Part shown: in pieces, positions 9,474-64,000 of the stretch
Layout: the number at the start of each line of letters is the position of its first letter
Position numbering within the stretch: the stretch's first letter is position 1
Source: Shigella phage vB_SdyM_006
Sequence record: MK295204
DNA length: 64,000 nt
Direction: 5' to 3' (one strand)
Notes under the pieces: model-generated
What the model was told of the DNA's origin: nothing
Seen by the model: the letters and a program-made list of their open reading frames with translations, nothing else
Database searches by the model: none
Program-made: the position numbers and the translations under genes

Positions 9474-10089
9474 AAAGTTCTTTTCCTACTCTTTTATAAG
9501 AAGAATCTAATGAAATACCTAAATATAATTTTAATTTATCTAATTTAGATAGCTTATTAAATCTTTCTCCAGACTTAATAATAGTTTTTAATATACTAAT
9601 ATCTTTATCTTTAGATTTAACACATTTTTTATATTCTTTATTAAGACGTTTCATTTGCGCTTCTTTTAATCTAACAGATTCTGCTAATTGTTTATCATTT
9701 GGACAACACGCTAAACGCTTTTTAAGTTGGTTCAATTTTATTTGAGCTCTATCAAGTCCAGCTTTTGTTGTCTCTTTTGAGTTTTCACGTGATTTAATTA
9801 TAGCTTTAAGACCTTCTATATCTCGGTCGCCTTTATATTGATTATAAATTCCTTTGATAGGAATAACATTCCCTTTAACATAACCTTTGGAATTATCGAA
9901 TCGTTCAAAAGTAAGAGCATTCGGGTCATTTCGTTTAAATGACACAGAAATCGGTTCATCTGAATAAGCACACTTTGTTTGCTCACAAATATTTTGAACG
10001 TATCGCTTGGATAAATTAAACTCTTTATTGCGGGCTTTAGCAGACTGTTTTAAGTGCTTGAATTTACTACTTAATTGTTTAGAATCCAT
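9430..10089 (-). CDS. hypothetical protein, basic, coiled-coil C-terminus
   Basis: 219 aa, ATG with strong AGGAGG Shine-Dalgarno; occupies the srd/modA/modB region of T4 but no ART or sigma motif recognised. Confidence 0.4.
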   Translation of the reverse strand: MDSKQLSSKFKHLKQSAKARNKEFNLSKRYVQNICEQTKCAYSDEPISVSFKRNDPNALTFERFDNSKGYVKGNVIPIKGIYNQYKGDRDIEGLKAIIKSRENSKETTKAGLDRAQIKLNQLKKRLACCPNDKQLAESVRLKEAQMKRLNKEYKKCVKSKDKDISILKTIIKSGERFNKLSKLDKLKLYLGISLDSSYKRVGKELYVLLCDSLQRLFRI

Positions 10090-37096: not shown

Positions 37097-37129
37097 ATTT
37101 TTATTATTTTATTAAGTTCTTTATATATT

Positions 37130-37232
37130 ATATATAACTATTAAGTAATAAATTAGTAACTCTAGTAAATTAATTTATTAAAAGTCTAGTATATTCTATA
37201 TAACTATTAAGTAATAAATTAATAACTCTATG
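37130..37232. repeat. two ~34-bp direct repeats (1 mismatch) spaced ~67 bp in intergenic region
   Basis: tatataactattaagtaataaatta[g/a]taactcta at ~37131-37164 and ~37197-37230; minus-strand reading contains GTTACT...17 nt...TATATAAT-like sigma70/T4-early promoter elements. Confidence 0.6.
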
Positions 37233-37235
37233 TTA

Positions 37236-38657
37236 CTATTTTCTGGTATGTTCTATCCAGTCTTTTACTATTTTTTGATCTTCTATATTATCAGGGTCTA
37301 ATTTTCTACCTAGTTTTCTTAGAAGATACATATAACGATATTTTTCTTTAGTAGTCATTTCGTATTGTTTTTGAAATGATAATCGCTTTCTTGTTTGTTT
37401 TGCTTTAGGAACTTCTAACATGTAATCAGTACAGATAGTAGCATTTTTAAAATACTTATCTTTTATATACTTTGCTAATCTCATATCAGGAACAAATAAA
37501 TTAACTTTTTTATTGCTTTTATTGACCCGGATATTAGTTCTTGCACATAATTGAAAAGCCGGTTCAAGATATTTTGATACTATATAAGCGTTAACTAATT
37601 CATCTTCTTCTAACCCTGCTGATATAGCAAGTTCTTTTAGTATAGGAATTTGCCATGGTAATGGGTTAAAGCTAAACATGACTACAACGTTCCTATAATC
37701 CGTATAGGAGTTTAATCCATGTGGGTTATATGGAACTTCAAGTCCTTTATTAAAACGCGCCCTGTATGAATTCCTGGTGTATATAAATGGCTCATCTCCA
37801 ATTAACCCGTCAAGAATATTTTTGATTCTGGAATAATTGGTTAAACCATCAATTTCTTTATCAGCATTATGTTTAGACCAAGAATTTTCAAACATAACGT
37901 TTATTTGGATTCTTGAAGTATTAGAATATTCTTTAAATACGAGTTTATCTTCTAGAGGTGATTTAACAAAATCCCATTTGTTAAAATATTTTAGAATTTT
38001 ACCAGTAAAAGTGTCTTCTATATTTGCTGCAGAAATAGTTACTTTATCAAAAACTTCCCAATCTTTACTAGACACGTCATTAATAAAATAGCATGTTGCG
38101 CCAGATTCCGTTTTAGATATTTTTGTTGGAATACCTTGTAATAAAGCTTTGTATAAAGGGAGTAAACTCACACAGATATCATCTAATTGGTTAATACCCT
38201 GTAATGCAAGTTCTTCTATTTCTTCTTTATATTTTTCATCTAAAATAAGATCTGATAATCCATCACTTATAGGAAGACAATATTTAAGGATTTCTTCTAA
38301 ATTATGAGAAAACGTAAATTTATTAAATGACACTAATTCTGGGACTTCATCAATATATAGACTAAATCCTTTGAACTTACTAAAATCCGTAATTGATAAC
38401 AATGCAGAATGAGTTATAAACAAAACATCTGCTTGTGTTTCTTCAATAGCTTTATTAACAGACTTTGAGCCAAGTTTATTGTCAGAATCAATTAATACCC
38501 CTTGTCCGCCCAACGAGCAAAAATAATCAAAGGATTGCTTAGACAAAAGCCTCGATATCGAGGCTATAATTGATTTTTCTTTTTTATTGACAATATTTTC
38601 TACAATGGCTTTAGTCTTTCCAGCAGCTGGAATTGCTTTTAAGACTTCAATTTTCAT
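37236..38657 (-). CDS. P-loop NTPase (Walker A and B), function unknown
   Basis: 473 aa; KAIPAAGKTKA Walker A near N-terminus, LYIDEVPE Walker B; no counterpart of this size remembered between nrdH and 55 in T4. Confidence 0.45.
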   Translation of the reverse strand: MKIEVLKAIPAAGKTKAIVENIVNKKEKSIIASISRLLSKQSFDYFCSLGGQGVLIDSDNKLGSKSVNKAIEETQADVLFITHSALLSITDFSKFKGFSLYIDEVPELVSFNKFTFSHNLEEILKYCLPISDGLSDLILDEKYKEEIEELALQGINQLDDICVSLLPLYKALLQGIPTKISKTESGATCYFINDVSSKDWEVFDKVTISAANIEDTFTGKILKYFNKWDFVKSPLEDKLVFKEYSNTSRIQINVMFENSWSKHNADKEIDGLTNYSRIKNILDGLIGDEPFIYTRNSYRARFNKGLEVPYNPHGLNSYTDYRNVVVMFSFNPLPWQIPILKELAISAGLEEDELVNAYIVSKYLEPAFQLCARTNIRVNKSNKKVNLFVPDMRLAKYIKDKYFKNATICTDYMLEVPKAKQTRKRLSFQKQYEMTTKEKYRYMYLLRKLGRKLDPDNIEDQKIVKDWIEHTRK

Positions 38658-51941: not shown

Positions 51942-52314
51942 ATGATAACGATAACAAATACTTAGTCTTTTTACAAAGTGTCATAATTTCATCTAATGCA
52001 GATTGTCCTGCACTACAAGTCGAGTCGTAGATTTCTTCTCCTAAAGAAATTATTTTATCTAATATTTCTGTAGATGATTCTATTTTTGTTGGGAAATTTC
52101 TAGTGTAAGCACCACCACTCCCTAGATATATCTCAACAAATGTGTCTATTAATTCTGGCATATCTTCATAGAAATCTTCATATACTTTATGATGCGCATA
52201 GCTTTTTGTTTCGAAGTGATATGAGTGCATGTAAGAAGAACTTATTAAACATAATCCAATAAATTCACTATGCCTTGTAGACTTGGGTTTTACAAACGTA
52301 GAAAAATCATTCAT
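51940..52314 (-). CDS. hypothetical protein (rI.-1 position)
   Basis: 124 aa, ATG, overlaps rI stop. Confidence 0.3.
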   Translation of the reverse strand: MNDFSTFVKPKSTRHSEFIGLCLISSSYMHSYHFETKSYAHHKVYEDFYEDMPELIDTFVEIYLGSGGAYTRNFPTKIESSTEILDKIISLGEEIYDSTCSAGQSALDEIMTLCKKTKYLLSLS

Positions 52315-52609
52315 CGTGTACTAATTCCTTTTTAAGATTGTATACGTATTCTTGTGCTGCTGTTTTGCCATCTTCACTACATTTGTTATTTTGACAGTTT
52401 GTTTCTTCCCATTTGGTTCTAATGAAAGCATAAAACTGCTCAGATTCTTCTTTAGAAGGTTCTTTCAATTTACTGTACACAGACATGGCACCTTCAGCGT
52501 ATACATTAAAATATTTATCGTCTGATGCATACGCGCTAGAAAACCCAATGCATAGTGTTAAAACACATGCAATTATGCCAGGTGAAAAGTAATTTTTGAA
52601 CTCGGCCAT
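52307..52609 (-). CDS. rI: lysis-inhibition regulator rI-like (signal-anchored periplasmic protein)
   Basis: 100 aa; N-terminal hydrophobic anchor GIIACVLTLCIGFSSAYA; EQFYAFIRTKWEE resembles remembered rI segment; located just 5'-distal of tk as in T4. Confidence 0.5.
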   Translation of the reverse strand: MAEFKNYFSPGIIACVLTLCIGFSSAYASDDKYFNVYAEGAMSVYSKLKEPSKEESEQFYAFIRTKWEETNCQNNKCSEDGKTAAQEYVYNLKKELVHDE

Positions 52610-53767: not shown

Positions 53768-54208
53768 TTATTTTAATTCTTTAAATCTCATTTTATCATG
53801 ACCATCTATTCGATAAGTCCCGTATTGTCCAACATTATCCACTATATTAACAACAATTTCACCATTGCAAACTCTAAATAGTCTAGCAAGTTTAGTCACT
53901 TCATACTTATTGATAATAAACTGGGGACCAAGAATGTCCCCATGAACTGCTCGATTACACCCAGAAACAAAAAATTTACCATTAGGAATAGATATAGAAT
54001 CAGAATGGTCAATTAAAGAATAAAATGTTGCTCCAAAGACACGTTTTTTAGGTTGCCAAACAATTTCTATATTTGACTTTTTGAGACCTGCATTTTCTAT
54101 CAAAGACCCAGATATTCCGTATAATTTAGGATTTACATATCCTGGGACTTCATACCATGAGAAAGTGCAAGAACTAAAAAATATAAGACATGCTAATAAG
54201 TATTTCAT
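53768..54208 (-). CDS. hypothetical secreted protein or lipoprotein
   Basis: 146 aa; MKYLLACLIFFSSCTF signal/lipobox-like. Confidence 0.35.
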   Translation of the reverse strand: MKYLLACLIFFSSCTFSWYEVPGYVNPKLYGISGSLIENAGLKKSNIEIVWQPKKRVFGATFYSLIDHSDSISIPNGKFFVSGCNRAVHGDILGPQFIINKYEVTKLARLFRVCNGEIVVNIVDNVGQYGTYRIDGHDKMRFKELK

Positions 54209-54519
54209 TGATTTATCCCTGCAATGTATTTGTCCATTAATGCTCCTCTATATGTTTCACATATTTCGCTATTAGGCGCCTTTTCGCATAAAGAAGATAG
54301 TGAATTTGCTTTATTTTTTAAAGCAGATATTTTGTACTCCGCATCTTTTTTTGATTGTAAAAATCCTTCATGAAAAGAAGTGCTCAATTCAACAGATAAA
54401 ATATTGATACATTCTATATCATCACCACAAAAGTATTTTGCTACATCTATAGATTCTGACATATTATTAGATGCAATCACCGGAAATGTTACTAAAAATA
54501 ACAATAAAAGTTTTTTCAT
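54205..54519 (-). CDS. hypothetical secreted protein
   Basis: 104 aa; MKKLLLLFLVTFPVIAS signal peptide. Confidence 0.35.
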   Translation of the reverse strand: MKKLLLLFLVTFPVIASNNMSESIDVAKYFCGDDIECINILSVELSTSFHEGFLQSKKDAEYKISALKNKANSLSSLCEKAPNSEICETYRGALMDKYIAGINQ

Positions 54520-54522
54520 AAC

Positions 54523-55083
54523 TTACTCCATTGTGTTTCCTACAATAGAATTAGATTTAAGATATTCTGCAATTGTTCGAACTTCATAAGAATATGTTTG
54601 TCCAGGTTTATATTTCCAATTATAGCCGGCATTGTAGCTTGCCAAAGCTTTATTGATATCTCCTTTATGGACTTTTAACCAACTTTTAAGTTCTACATGG
54701 CTCCAATATGCAGAATTTCCTCTATCTAATAGTTCTTTAATTATATCAGAATCTGGCTTAGGAGTTCCGGCTAATTTAAGACGGTTCCTAACAGTTTTAA
54801 TATAATTTTGGAACATACCATAAGCATGGTGGTTTTTCCGGTAAACTACCAAATTTGGGTTCTCGTACCCAGAACTTTCTTTAAATGCTATAGCAGCAAA
54901 TATATACCCAAGATGCTCTTCATCTTTTTCAAAGTCTCTTGGTTCTCCGTTTTTGTTAAATTGTTGTCCAAAATGGTATGCATAATTTAGATTATCATAT
55001 TGTTCGTATGATAAATTATTAGGCAAATAAACTGCACTACAAGAAACCGAGACAAATAATAAAGCGATTAATAAATATTTCAA
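54523..55083 (-). CDS. secreted lytic transglycosylase (SLT domain)-like protein
   Basis: 186 aa; signal peptide; AIAFKESSG (catalytic E-S), AYGMFQ, SYNAGYN SLT-like motifs; apparent TTG start overlapping regB stop. Confidence 0.5.
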   Translation of the reverse strand: MKYLLIALLFVSVSCSAVYLPNNLSYEQYDNLNYAYHFGQQFNKNGEPRDFEKDEEHLGYIFAAIAFKESSGYENPNLVVYRKNHHAYGMFQNYIKTVRNRLKLAGTPKPDSDIIKELLDRGNSAYWSHVELKSWLKVHKGDINKALASYNAGYNWKYKPGQTYSYEVRTIAEYLKSNSIVGNTME

Positions 55084-55499
55084 AATTTAATTACCTTTGT
55101 TGAAATTTTAGATGATAAACGTGTTGGATTAACTATAGCCATACGACATGTTAATCCATATGTTCCCTGTGTTCCTTCAGATGAAGTGAATCCAATCCAT
55201 AGTTTCCCATCTGTAATTTCTAACCTAGTAGGTCTATATTCGATATTAGGGTCTGGATTTTCTATAGGCATATCAGGCAATTTACAGTAGTCTAAAATAG
55301 ATTCCTTTGCCTGATATAATTTATTTAATAGACTAAAAATATCACTTAACGGAATTCCACGTTCTAAAGTCCTGTCAATAATATGACTTTGGAATTTAAT
55401 ATGGAACCCAGCGTTTTCTTGATTTAATTTTGAGTTAATTTCTGAGAAAGCATCAGCGAACTTCCTACGTGCTTTGGCTCGTTCTACATGAATGTTCAT
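55080..55499 (-). CDS. regB: endoribonuclease RegB
   Basis: 139 aa; ...IEYRPTRLEITDGKLWIGFT...CRMAIVNPTRLSSKISTKVIKF matches remembered T4 RegB. Confidence 0.75.
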   Translation of the reverse strand: MNIHVERAKARRKFADAFSEINSKLNQENAGFHIKFQSHIIDRTLERGIPLSDIFSLLNKLYQAKESILDYCKLPDMPIENPDPNIEYRPTRLEITDGKLWIGFTSSEGTQGTYGLTCRMAIVNPTRLSSKISTKVIKF

Positions 55500-55897
55500 T
55501 AAATAGTCTCCAATTTTTTACCATAAAACTTATACCAATCAGGTTTTTGAGCGATTTTTTCATCTAATCTTGATTTAGATAAAGATATATCGTCTTCAGA
55601 CGGTGTATAATCATTATACCATTCTTTAGGAAAAATGAAATCAATTTTTTCAAAAGAAATGTTAAAGCCACGTTTTTTACATTCTTGGACTATCTGTTGT
55701 TGGCGAATTTCTAAAAATTTGAGTTTGTTATAAAAGAATTTGACATGACCTGTACCAAGGACGTAGTTGGCAGGAATTTTGACTGGTTTACCAAAAGCTT
55801 TTAAAGCCAAAGTAAACACACGTGGAAGTTCGCGATATTCAGCGATGAGATGTTGATCGGTAAGAAGTGCTGGGTCTAAAAGATTAATACGTGTCAT
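55499..55897 (-). CDS. denV: endonuclease V (pyrimidine dimer DNA glycosylase) DenV
   Basis: 132 aa; MTRINL...DQHLIAEYRELPRVF...GTGHVKFFYNKLKFL...RLDEKIAQKPDWYKFYG matches remembered T4 DenV. Confidence 0.85.
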   Translation of the reverse strand: MTRINLLDPALLTDQHLIAEYRELPRVFTLALKAFGKPVKIPANYVLGTGHVKFFYNKLKFLEIRQQQIVQECKKRGFNISFEKIDFIFPKEWYNDYTPSEDDISLSKSRLDEKIAQKPDWYKFYGKKLETI

Positions 55898-55949
55898 ATA
55901 TCCTCCATTAATTTAAGAATATACTAACACGTATTTTTATTAAAGTAAA

Positions 55950-56318
55950 CTAAATTGTATCAGTAAATGTTCTGTTAATTACATCTTCTTTCTGTTCATC
56001 AGTTAAAGAATTAAATCTAACAGCGTATCCAGAAACTCGGATAGTTAACTGTGGGTATTTTTCTGGATTTTCTCTTGCGTCTAATAACATTTCTTTGTTC
56101 AATACATTAACATTTAGATGCTGGCCACCTTCGATTCGTGGAGCAAATTCTAAAGCTAAATCTTTTTGAGTAGAATTACCAAATGAAGTCATTGGAACAA
56201 CTTCATCTTCTTTAAAATATTTTGATGCTAAAATTCTACAATTATTTGTTTCTGTATCTACTAAAAAGATTGTTCCATAAAAAGGACCAGAAACAAGTTG
56301 TCTTGCTTGAATTGACAT
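55950..56318 (-). CDS. autonomous glycyl radical cofactor (GrcA/YfiD-like; T4 Y06I-type)
   Basis: 122 aa; [11 protein letters not shown]...[34 protein letters not shown] nearly identical in pattern to E. coli GrcA glycyl-radical domain. Confidence 0.85.
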
Positions 56319-56482
56319 TATTTTACCTCGTACATGTATGGATTAGTATCGTTAATATCTTTAACAAATCCATAGAATTTTTTATTGACATATAATGCAA
56401 TAGCATTTTTATGTTGGACCCATGCTAAATTATATAACTTATCAGAATTACCAAACGCACCTTTAGCTTCATTTAAAATCAT
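56318..56482 (-). CDS. hypothetical small protein (not in ORF track, 54 aa)
   Basis: Hand-translated [54 protein letters not shown]; TAATG coupling to GrcA-like gene. Confidence 0.25.
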
Positions 56483-56484
56483 AA

Positions 56485-56973
56485 TCAACACCCAATAAAA
56501 TATATAATAGGATAATAGCCAGTAAAAGCTATTGTACTTGTTAAAGCATCAATAAAATCAAAAGTGTTAAGTCCCATAGGTTCTTCAATAATAAAAATTG
56601 GAGAATTTAAACAACGGCCTCTAAAACGATTATGCCAACTTGGATTGGATAATGCTCTTCTGGAAGCTTTAATAAACTCTACACTTTTAATAGGTTTAAT
56701 GCCTGTCTTTTCAACATGGCCATTATATTTTAGTTTTGTGTCTAAAGCAGTATGCCCGATAATAAAAATATCTCTATGTGGATTTCTTAGTTTTTGTTCT
56801 AAAGCAAATTCTGATATTTGAGTAGATTTGTAAGTTTGACGTCCAAAATCAAGTTTGCATTGACGATATTCATAAACTACACTAAATATTGAACGTGTTA
56901 CCGTCCTCATTTTATTAGTATCATTTGCTTCACATTTATCTAAAAATTGTGTCATTAAATCATAGTAGTTCAT
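56485..56973 (-). CDS. hypothetical protein
   Basis: 162 aa, ATG start. Confidence 0.35.
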   Translation of the reverse strand: MNYYDLMTQFLDKCEANDTNKMRTVTRSIFSVVYEYRQCKLDFGRQTYKSTQISEFALEQKLRNPHRDIFIIGHTALDTKLKYNGHVEKTGIKPIKSVEFIKASRRALSNPSWHNRFRGRCLNSPIFIIEEPMGLNTFDFIDALTSTIAFTGYYPIIYFIGC

Positions 56974-57164
56974 TTGTTTCTCCTAATGGCCTTACTAGAT
57001 GAAATAGTAAGGCGTAGTGATAATTTAAGTTAAAATAGCCTTTTCTAATATTTCTGCTTTGGTCCAAGTAATGCCAAAACATTCCATTGGCGTTTTATCG
57101 TTAGTAAATAAATTGTTTACTAGTTGTTTGCACTCAATTTCTATGAGTTTTAAATCGGTTTCTG

Positions 57165-57347
57165 TCATAGATTTACTTCTTTAATTACAATTTTTTCGCT
57201 ATACCCAGGATAATCACATTTAATATAACTATCTTGGGATAATTTACTTTCAAACATCCAATCTTCTAATTGTTGTTCACCAGAACATGACATAAAGGCC
57301 ATAAACGATTCGGCTAAATGGTCATCAATCTCTATAGTAATTTGCAT
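57165..57347 (-). CDS. hypothetical acidic small protein
   Basis: 60 aa, ATG start. Confidence 0.3.
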   Translation of the reverse strand: MQITIEIDDHLAESFMAFMSCSGEQQLEDWMFESKLSQDSYIKCDYPGYSEKIVIKEVNL

Positions 57348-57348
57348 A

Positions 57349-57720
57349 TTATCTCTTTAATTGGAAATGAGGACCATCTTTAAATGTTTTCCAATCACCA
57401 CCCCATTCTATAGCAATACCAAGTTCATTTGCTGCTTGTTTCATTGCTTTGGCAACGAGTTCAAATTTAGACCAATCTTGCCATGGGATAGCTTTATTAA
57501 CTAATGGTCCTAAGTCTACGGCTTCACCTGTCAAATGATAAGAATTCATAGTTTTAGAAACGCCTTTTCGGACATTTTCTTTTTGCTGTTCTACCGAACG
57601 TAGGCCTTCAATAACCATAAAATCTATCTCGGTTATTTGAATTGCTCGCTCTACAACTTTAACAAGCTCAGGTTTAACGCCTTTTAATCTATCTTTTGAT
57701 CTTTGTGATAATACGTACAT
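57349..57720 (-). CDS. endolysin, L-alanyl-D-glutamate peptidase (peptidase M15C)
   Basis: 123 aa; NSYHLTGEAVDL (SxHxxGxAxD) and DGPHFQL (zinc ligands) as in T5-type M15 endolysin; replaces T4 e-lysozyme in this region. Confidence 0.65.
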   Translation of the reverse strand: MYVLSQRSKDRLKGVKPELVKVVERAIQITEIDFMVIEGLRSVEQQKENVRKGVSKTMNSYHLTGEAVDLGPLVNKAIPWQDWSKFELVAKAMKQAANELGIAIEWGGDWKTFKDGPHFQLKR

Positions 57721-57759
57721 AAGTTTCTCCTTTGTTTGCTTATGTACGTATTTATTAAA

Positions 57760-58209
57760 TTAGAAATCCTTATATCCTGGTGATAATTCACTAAGCATGT
57801 CTAAAAAGTGTTTAGAATCTGCAGCTAGCTCATCTTTGTTAACAGCCAATAGAATTGGTTCATTAAGTAGATTATACTTTTTAACCATTGCTTTAAAATA
57901 TGCTAAAAGATGATTATCAGTTTTTACTGATACATGGATATCGTCATCATAAGAATCAAACCCGTCATCATAAGTAGTATATCCATAAATGGTAAATACA
58001 ACATTTTTTAATTCTTCTAAAGGATTTTCTACATCAGGGAAATGCTTAGTTAATAAAGGTTTTAGACTTTCGCCATAAGAAGCAAGCACTTTATCTGTTA
58101 GTTCTAAAGTAATCTCACATTCAACCATGTCGTGTTTAATTCGTCCACCTTCTTCAAAATCACCAACTTCAGCAATTAAATCAAATAGTTCTTTATCGTT
58201 AATAATCAT
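57760..58209 (-). CDS. hypothetical acidic protein
   Basis: 149 aa, ATG start. Confidence 0.3.
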   Translation of the reverse strand: MIINDKELFDLIAEVGDFEEGGRIKHDMVECEITLELTDKVLASYGESLKPLLTKHFPDVENPLEELKNVVFTIYGYTTYDDGFDSYDDDIHVSVKTDNHLLAYFKAMVKKYNLLNEPILLAVNKDELAADSKHFLDMLSELSPGYKDF

Positions 58210-58450
58210 TTTGTTTCCTTAAAATAGATGTACCATAATTAATATAATAAACATCATCTTTGTCTAAGCAACAGGTTCCAATAAAAATCTTATGGGTACA
58301 AGATTGCAATGAAGCTAATGCTTCTTTAAATGTTATTGCATTAACTACAGCAAGTTCATTTGTTAAGATGGTATGATTGCCTACATAAGCAAAATCATAT
58401 TCACTATTATTGATGACCCTAATAATAGTTGTTGGATGTATTTCGGTCAT
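58199..58450 (-). CDS. hypothetical protein
   Basis: 83 aa, ATG start. Confidence 0.3.
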   Translation of the reverse strand: MTEIHPTTIIRVINNSEYDFAYVGNHTILTNELAVVNAITFKEALASLQSCTHKIFIGTCCLDKDDVYYINYGTSILRKQNDY

Positions 58451-60163: not shown

Positions 60164-60639
60164 TTTGTGTCTCCTTTAATTTCATCAAGAAAGTCAAAAT
60201 AAGCGTTAGGATAAAACAATAGAATAAATGGTGTCATTGCTAGCCCAATAGAATACAATATCATACTCAATAAATCTGTAGAATAATGTATAAAGAAAGG
60301 CCAAACTATTAAAATATACATCATTATCATAAAAATAGTGTTCATCATATAAATATTGGACAATTTATGCGGTACACTGTAATACCCGTTTTGGTATCTA
60401 TTGTTATTATTACTTAATGAAATTACAATATCACCTACCGTCTCTTTATCGAAACCTAAATTTATTGTTTCAAACATGACAAAGAGTCCTAAAACTATAC
60501 AACTTATTAAAAATAATAATGAATATGCAAACCCTGCTCCTGTGTTTGCCCACATATCAAATGAGAACAATGTATTTCCAGATAACACAAGTAAAAATAT
60601 AAAGACAACTTTGTTGATTTGAGATAATAAATAATTCAT
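60160..60639 (-). CDS. hypothetical polytopic membrane protein
   Basis: 159 aa; several hydrophobic segments. Confidence 0.35.
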   Translation of the reverse strand: MNYLLSQINKVVFIFLLVLSGNTLFSFDMWANTGAGFAYSLLFLISCIVLGLFVMFETINLGFDKETVGDIVISLSNNNNRYQNGYYSVPHKLSNIYMMNTIFMIMMYILIVWPFFIHYSTDLLSMILYSIGLAMTPFILLFYPNAYFDFLDEIKGDTK

Positions 60640-63751: not shown

Positions 63752-64000
63752 TCCTTTAATTTTAGATACATCCACCACAAGAACTATGTCGCCAATCTTC
63801 TTCGTTAATATGTGGATAAAGAGCATATAAGATTTTTTCGATATCTTTAAATCCATGTCTTTTTAAAGACGAAACTAATGAGTTAGTATCGTGTTTCAAC
63901 ATTAATTGGACCCAACTTTCTGGACTTAACCCTGCTGTATAAGAATCCCATTCTTCAGACCAATTATCGTCAAAACGCCAGGTGTCATAAGATTTACGTG
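63752..64000 (-). CDS. hypothetical protein, C-terminal fragment (N-terminus beyond window end)
   Basis: Hand-translated open frame ending ...HINEEDWRHSSCGGCI-stop at 63752; no start inside window. Confidence 0.35.

Follow-up and report, generated by a model that had tools for sequence, protein, structure and literature searches.

An M15C-type endolysin in the gene e neighbourhood and a vs.1 orthologue in a T4-like phage genome

How far does the lysis equipment of a T4-like phage depart from that of T4 itself? The question is raised by a stretch of 64,000 nucleotides (nt) from Shigella phage vB_SdyM_006 (sequence record MK295204), called the window here, in which two genes for predicted murein enzymes lie on the minus strand: a single-domain M15C zinc peptidase of 123 amino acids (aa), a predicted L-alanyl-D-glutamate peptidase (57349..57720), and an SLT-like protein of 186 aa (54523..55083). 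A sequence-only reading of these genes had proposed a lysis toolkit unlike that of T4. This holds for the endolysin, where an M15 enzyme has been swapped in, but not for the SLT-like protein, which is the orthologue of T4 vs.1 and is found in the same regB-vs.1-vs order.

The locus is very probably the part of the early-strand region that runs from nudE to tk in a T4-like Proteus phage (genus Bragavirus), and it encodes two unrelated murein enzymes: an M15C endolysin responsible for lysis, and a vs.1-type periplasmic enzyme that is not a lysis enzyme. This explanation is carried by homology, catalytic residues, fold, synteny, and the absence of a homologue of gene e. The 4.6 kilobases (kb) between 53.7 and 58.3 kb are 98.6% identical to Proteus phage phiP4-3, a member of the T4-like group (Straboviridae, genus Bragavirus), and 82-86% identical to Proteus phages PM2, Pm5461, and SJ_PmiM. 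In phiP4-3, base 1 of the window is equivalent to the rIIA/rIIB junction, and base 64000 to the tRNA region. A literature search by the name phiP4-3 found no paper with that name.

The M15 peptidase and the neighbourhood of gene e

The M15 gene is located between nudE and denV, as is T4 e, which bears out the earlier statement that an M15 peptidase is present where T4 has its e lysozyme. When T4 e was compared by tblastn with the window and the remaining 105 kb of phiP4-3, no free-standing e-type lysozyme was found, and the sole match fell inside the gp5 gene ('baseplate hub subunit and tail lysozyme'). Profile searches of the six-frame translations returned one M15 gene and one gene of the Vs.1 family. 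Three open reading frames (ORFs) separate the M15 gene from nudE in the window phage, and one in Pm5461.

Several comparisons support the prediction that the protein is not a lysozyme of the T4 e type but an M15C peptidase of the L-Ala-D-Glu type. Its profile matches are Pfam Peptidase_M15_4 (E=1e-14; 55.3 bits, cut-off 25) and PHROG 465 'endolysin' (E=1.4e-66), and the gene is labelled 'endolysin' in both phiP4-3 and Pm5461. Among solved structures, it matches 23ri and 8q2g (E ~1e-37), two nearly identical M15C proteins, followed by ChiX (5opz, 1.9e-33) and the T5 endolysin (2mxz, 1.4e-24). The sequence of 23ri is that of the endolysin of the RB49-like phage GEC-3S, to which it is identical across the aligned stretch. 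The T4 gene e lysozyme (GH24) shares with the M15 protein its neighbourhood and the presumed role of a holin-dependent endolysin, but is unrelated to it in sequence and cuts the glycan, whereas the M15 protein is predicted to cut the peptide stem.

Both zinc-site motifs on which the sequence-only reading relied are exact: SxHxxGxAxD corresponds to S60-Y-H62-L-T-G65-E-A67-V-D69, and DGPHFQ to D115-G-P-H118-F-Q120. In a four-phage alignment with Pm5461, GEC-3S, and Miro, the residues H62, D69, W110, D115, and H118 are all invariant. They match H62, D69, W109, D114, and H117 of EndoRB49, where H62, D69, and H117 are zinc ligands, D114 is catalytic, and W109 is essential (PMC10487532).

The enzyme had also been described as T5-type, which is correct for the M15C family but not for the subtype. 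In the T5 endolysin (EndoT5, PDB 2mxz/8p3a), the SxHxxGxAxD zinc motif aligns with that of the window protein, but the C-terminal D...H is preceded by an inserted calcium-binding regulatory loop. At this loop (ADWNASGDYHDEIK) the match to 2mxz stops, and the window protein continues from GGDW directly to KTFKDGPH; the loop of the T5-type, calcium-activated M15C enzymes is thus absent, and the protein has the short form seen in GEC-3S. Because the T5 alignment stops at the calcium loop, the window endolysin is assigned to the short RB49 type rather than strictly to the T5 type, and its regulation is predicted to be of the RB49 type as well.

The closest known systems are therefore the endolysins of RB49 (EndoRB49), RB43 (EndoRB43), and GEC-3S (PDB 23ri, 8q2g), the last with ~54% identity to the window protein. 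All of them share with it a single domain of ~125-130 aa, the same zinc ligands, catalytic Asp, and conserved Trp, the lack of both a calcium loop and a signal peptide, and a gene position in a T4-like genome that is a few kb upstream of regB. The window protein differs in its genus (Bragavirus) and host (Proteus) and in lacking the short C-terminal tail of the GEC-3S endolysin. Cleavage of the L-Ala-D-Glu bond is predicted from the ~54% identity to the GEC-3S endolysin, the characterised enzyme being that of RB49.

GEC-3S (Krischvirus) and Miro (Slopekvirus) carry the M15 endolysin gene, likewise a few kb upstream of regB, and two reports describe the endolysins of RB43 and RB49 as L-alanyl/L-alanoyl-D-glutamate peptidases like that of T5 (PMC8140593, PMC10487532). 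The M15C gene in approximately the slot of gene e is thus a non-orthologous replacement found also in RB49-, RB43-, and Slopekvirus-type relatives, and the replacement is real but already known.

The sequence upstream of the gene suggests that the endolysin is expressed late, like T4 e. A candidate T4-type late promoter, AATAAATA (57749..57756, minus strand), is located 29 nt before the endolysin ATG, and the AATAAATAC element at this distance is part of a block, TAATAAATACGTACATAAG...AAAGGAGAAACTTATG, which is conserved with Pm5461 even though overall identity is only ~83%. In the phiP4-3 reference, the tail-sheath gene is likewise preceded, at 32 nt, by the element AATAAATA. The T4 late-promoter core, TATAAATA, occurs a single time in the 64-kb window (60348-60355, plus strand), compared with 16.6 occurrences expected from shuffles, and 13 times in each of two 50-kb reference segments with structural genes, where several of the sites are just upstream of late genes. 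This scarcity is a strong avoidance signal across the minus-strand, T4-early-like part of the genome.

No signal peptide, signal-arrest-release (SAR) segment, or cleavage site was found in the M15 protein, whose maximum N-terminal hydrophobicity over 10 aa is 0.8. Without a hydrophobic N-terminus, it should be a cytoplasmic, holin-dependent endolysin. The other mark of this canonical class, a holin, is annotated in phiP4-3, and the antiholin gene rI is present in the window (52307..52609, minus strand; PHROG 1246 'lysis inhibition', 1.2e-29; 35% identity to T4 RI, 1e-8). The spanins and rIII are likewise annotated in the phiP4-3 genome, all at sites outside the window, and rI is the sole further lysis-timing gene within it.

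In the proposed mechanism, the soluble endolysin would accumulate in the cytoplasm, probably expressed from the late-promoter variant just upstream, and would reach the wall only once a T-type holin has opened the inner membrane. There, with zinc bound by H62, D69, and H118 and with D115 as the catalytic residue, it would cut the L-Ala-D-Glu bond of the murein stem peptide, after which the spanins would finish lysis.

The SLT-like protein and T4 vs.1

The SLT-like gene does not distinguish the window phage from T4, which has it as vs.1. The window product is 44% identical to T4 Vs.1 over 181 aa (full-length BLASTP, E=3e-46), matches PHROG 600 at 9.1e-57, and shares with the T4 protein its length, signal peptide, and gene order. 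The order regB-vs.1-vs is common to the window, T4, RB49, STP4-a, KpV477, fHe-Yen9-01, and Ursula. Homologues of vs.1 are present in ~1,950 phage records, including Felixounavirus and Kuttervirus phages, and when 1.8 billion representative proteins were searched exhaustively, 85 relatives of Vs.1 were obtained at E<=0.001, nearly all of 160-220 aa.

The two loci differ in detail. T4 vs.1 starts with ATG after a 7-nt gap from regB, whereas the window orthologue has a TTG start that overlaps the regB stop as TTGA (55080-55083, minus strand), suggesting coupled, low-level translation. After vs, the window has a 146-aa exported protein, whereas T4 has tk.4. The gene had been placed upstream of regB in the sequence-only reading, which is true only in plus-strand coordinates; in transcription, it lies directly downstream (3') of regB.

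The assignment to the GH23/SLT fold comes mainly from the family. A single-sequence phmmer search of the protein against the PDB gave no match, and EtgA, a type III secretion transglycosylase, was matched through Vs.1 family profiles only (E=1.3e-7), with the catalytic Glu aligned with the EtgA motif AIAWNES. Among Vs.1 family members, Pfam SLT matches at E<=0.01 were obtained for 19/21 and 42/67 sequences, the best at 1.6e-10. In the alignment of 67 sequences, E69, Y150, G153, Y164, and Q28 never vary, W135 and S149 hardly do, and S70, G89, and Q92 are present in 62, 66, and 48 sequences, respectively. A lysozyme-like GH23 fold is found, together with the family-1 motifs of GH23 (the catalytic Glu in E-S, G-x-(M/F)-Q, and (A/S)-Y-N-x-G). 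The family alignment, the 42/67 Pfam SLT matches, and the EtgA match make the fold and the catalytic motif well supported. In Vs.1 itself, the motifs are E-S, G-x-F-Q, and S-Y-N-A-G, which characterise family-1 transglycosylases.

The earlier identification of a signal-peptide-bearing SLT-like protein was thus correct: Pfam SLT is above its cut-off, the catalytic motifs and GH23 fold are present, and the N-terminus is signal-like. Alignment also confirmed the catalytic motifs of both enzymes, with five M15 residues invariant in four phages and E69 of Vs.1 conserved in 67/67 sequences. Compared with EtgA from enteropathogenic Escherichia coli (EPEC) type III secretion, with E. coli MltE/EmtA, and with the Slt70 domain, Vs.1 has a family-specific N-terminal helix and the invariant Gln28. 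MltE is a lipoprotein, which the Vs.1 family is not, and EtgA has a secretion-system partner machine, whereas no partner machine is known for Vs.1.

At the N-terminus of the window protein, MKYLLIALLFVSVSCSA with predicted cleavage before VY, a single basic residue is combined with a hydrophobic core (Kyte-Doolittle 3.2) and with a cleavage site that fits the (-3,-1) rule. A signal-like N-terminus is present in 64/67 homologues and a lipobox in only 1/67, so Vs.1 is read as a soluble periplasmic protein and not as a lipoprotein. A lipoprotein reading of the motif VSVSC was considered and rejected on two grounds: this Cys lacks conservation, and AxA-type sites without a lipobox are present in 63 of the 64 signal-bearing homologues.

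Expression of a periplasm-targeted murein enzyme from the early region, as had been claimed, agrees with the available evidence, but is true of T4 too. In time-resolved omics data, T4 vs.1 is classed as early-RNA/middle-protein (PMC9697503 supplement). In the window, an early (sigma-70-type) promoter-like sequence, GTTTAC...TATATT (55915..55950, minus strand), is found upstream of denV-regB-vs.1-vs; it is conserved with Pm5461, where the matching site carries a promoter annotation. A scan of 53.4-59.4 kb for sigma-70 promoters and terminators showed no enrichment relative to shuffles. Nolan et al. (2006), citing earlier PSI-BLAST evidence, reported that vs.1 of six T4-like genomes matches SLT (PMC1524935), and literature searches for experimental work on Vs.1 found none. 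The window protein would be a Sec-exported, single-domain GH23 enzyme with Glu69 as the catalytic residue, whose gene would be co-transcribed with regB and is probably translationally coupled to it.

Alternative roles of the two enzymes

An exported enzyme that resembles murein glycosidases in fold and catalytic residues could act as an accessory in lysis and form, together with the M15 peptidase, a two-enzyme toolkit distinct from that of T4. The predicted export of Vs.1 fits this idea, and 'some role in cell lysis' was suggested for vs.1 by Nolan et al. (2006; PMC1524935). It is nonetheless unlikely. T4 has vs.1 in the same place, and phages retain the gene whether their endolysin is of the GH24 type (T4) or the M15 type (window phage, RB49); because it co-exists with either type, nothing links it specifically to lysis. 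Moreover, the T4 orthologue is classed as early-RNA/middle-protein, a stage at which an unregulated lysis enzyme exported to the periplasm would do harm, and the TTG start coupled to regB suggests low expression. Vs.1 would instead most likely be a periplasmic lytic transglycosylase acting in local remodelling of murein before lysis. It is doubtful that its activity is that of a hydrolytic muramidase similar to goose-type lysozyme, since its best relatives at the sequence level are lytic transglycosylases (Pfam SLT, and EtgA at 1.3e-7) and its E-S, G-x-F-Q, and S-Y-N-A-G motifs are typical of family-1 transglycosylases.

The M15 protein, in turn, might be a murein-remodelling or virion-associated peptidase, with lysis achieved by another enzyme. 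Its bacterial homologue ChiX from Serratia marcescens (PDB 5opz), an L-Ala-D-Glu endopeptidase that aligns with window-protein residues 5-121, including DGPHFQL, at 1.9e-33, is encoded by a chromosomal gene and serves, with a holin-like protein, in chitinase secretion and not in phage lysis. In addition, the M15 protein of the related Morganella phage MP1 appears in a virion mass-spectrometry table (PMC5384007). This possibility is very improbable, however, given that searches of the window and the reference turned up, beyond the gp5 domain and vs.1, no further soluble murein hydrolase. The ~54% identity with the endolysin of GEC-3S, an RB49-like phage, the RB49 enzyme being biochemically characterised, also argues against it, as do the PHROG 465 endolysin match at 1.4e-66 and the location of the gene, which is positioned like T4 e and preceded by a conserved late-promoter-like element.

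Some points weigh against the reading of the locus as an M15C lysis endolysin accompanied by a periplasmic enzyme of the vs.1 type. The candidate late-promoter element AATAAATA has one mismatch to TATAAATA, and its promoter role is predicted. The SLT-like protein passes the Pfam SLT threshold marginally (E=5.3e-5; 23.2 bits, cut-off 21.3), and signal peptides were judged by crude hydrophobicity and the (-3,-1) rule, not by a trained predictor. The holin and spanins are known from the phiP4-3 reference and not from the window. The enzymatic activity of both Bragavirus proteins is predicted, as are their specificity, export, timing, and role, and the holin dependence.

Both features are already annotated or published: the replacement of GH24 by M15C has been characterised in RB43 and RB49, and the likeness of vs.1 to SLT was reported in 2006. 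Though real, the finding is an ordinary one, of little consequence except for correct annotation. 'Hypothetical' is the wrong label for the vs.1 orthologue, which should be described as an exported protein of the GH23/SLT fold and left out of any list of differences from T4. Considering its phage records, vs.1 would be a very widespread early periplasmic murein enzyme, with Vs as its constant neighbour.

Vs, the 146-aa protein and the surrounding genes

Two other secreted proteins had been noted beside the SLT-like gene, and by the simple rule both carry signal peptides: one of 104 aa (54205-54519) and one of 146 aa (53768-54208), both on the minus strand. The former is the orthologue of T4 vs, known as 'valyl-tRNA synthetase modifier' (PHROG 1256, 6e-29), although its BLASTP match to T4 Vs is weak (2e-4). 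Across nine phages drawn from different T4-like groups, T4 among them, vs always follows vs.1 directly, its product always has a signal-like N-terminus, and C31, C37, C78, and C87 (CX5C...CX8C) are invariant. An AlphaFold2 model of Vs is a confident four-helix bundle (mean predicted local distance difference test score, pLDDT, of 87.1), a search for its structural neighbours gave none that was informative, and a word-indexed protein search returned a single cluster. From its sequence, Vs looks periplasmic and disulfide-bonded, which fits poorly with a cytoplasmic role as a synthetase modifier. No discussion of the export of Vs was found in the searchable literature.

The 146-aa protein is exported and possibly a lipoprotein, as it has a signal and a lipobox pattern (FFSSC; PHROG 4957, 1.6e-52). 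It is present in 232 phage records, in several of them adjacent to vs. In Citrobacter phage Ursula, the order is again PHROG 600-1256-4957, and an Acinetobacter phage has a trio of vs.1, Vs-like, and ORF146-like genes in the same order. The 146-aa ORF occupies the position of T4 tk.4, a macro-domain protein, but was rejected as its counterpart, having no similarity to it.

It is conceivable, if only as a tentative proposal, that vs.1, vs, and (outside the T4 genus) the PHROG 4957 gene constitute a conserved module whose three consecutive products are exported and made ahead of lysis, and in which Vs, everywhere annotated as a cytoplasmic synthetase modifier, would really be a periplasmic four-helix disulfide protein working with Vs.1 or restraining it. 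The evidence consists of the export signals, the four invariant cysteines, and the strict adjacency, while interaction and function are proposed. If true, Vs and Vs.1 could act together, for instance in reshaping the wall locally or in guarding the cell against superinfecting phage.

The minus strand encodes every gene from 52 to 60 kb. In the order of transcription, nudE (59147-58737) is followed by three small ORFs, the M15 peptidase (57720-57349), four ORFs, GrcA/vs.6 (56318-55950), denV (55897-55499), regB (55499-55080), the SLT-like protein (55083-54523), the Vs homologue (54519-54205), the 146-aa ORF (54208-53768), a 70-aa ORF, tk, rI.1, rI, and rI.-1. The corresponding order in T4 is nudE, e, ipIII, ipII, denV, vs.8 to vs.3, regB, vs.1, vs, and tk.4 to tk.

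The upstream edge of the e neighbourhood is marked by the Nudix hydrolase, orthologous to T4 nudE/e.1 (Pfam NUDIX, 1.7e-16; T4 NudE, 4e-12). Synteny markers further downstream are the GrcA/YfiD-like glycyl-radical protein, an orthologue of T4 vs.6 (Pfam Gly_radical, 8.8e-17; 54% identity to T4 Vs.6, 1.6e-35), and the pyrimidine-dimer glycosylase denV (Pfam Pyr_excise, 3.4e-15; 54% identity to T4 DenV, 4e-42). Directly upstream of vs.1 is the endoribonuclease gene regB (Pfam REGB_T4, 1.2e-51; tblastn with T4 RegB, 2e-26). The interval between e and denV in T4 carries the internal-protein genes ipII and ipIII, for which no match was found in the window or in the searched part of the phiP4-3 reference. 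An NCBIfam search of six proteins returned nothing useful.

Among the smaller ORFs, one of 162 aa (56485-56973, minus strand) belongs to PHROG 1488, of unknown function, and has a faint similarity to T4 vs.8 (tblastn E=0.009). Another, of 83 aa (58199-58450, minus strand), is labelled 'carbamoyltransferase' in both phiP4-3 records, which is probably an annotation artefact because this function is implausible for a protein so small. Elsewhere in the window, a 145-nt stretch (37100-37244) is 96% identical to phiP4-3 positions 9848-9994, which are outside the window and extend from the gap after the tail-fibre hinge-connector gene (end at 9776) into the start of the proximal-connector gene (9985). 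This seems to be a short element repeated in two distant places of the genome.

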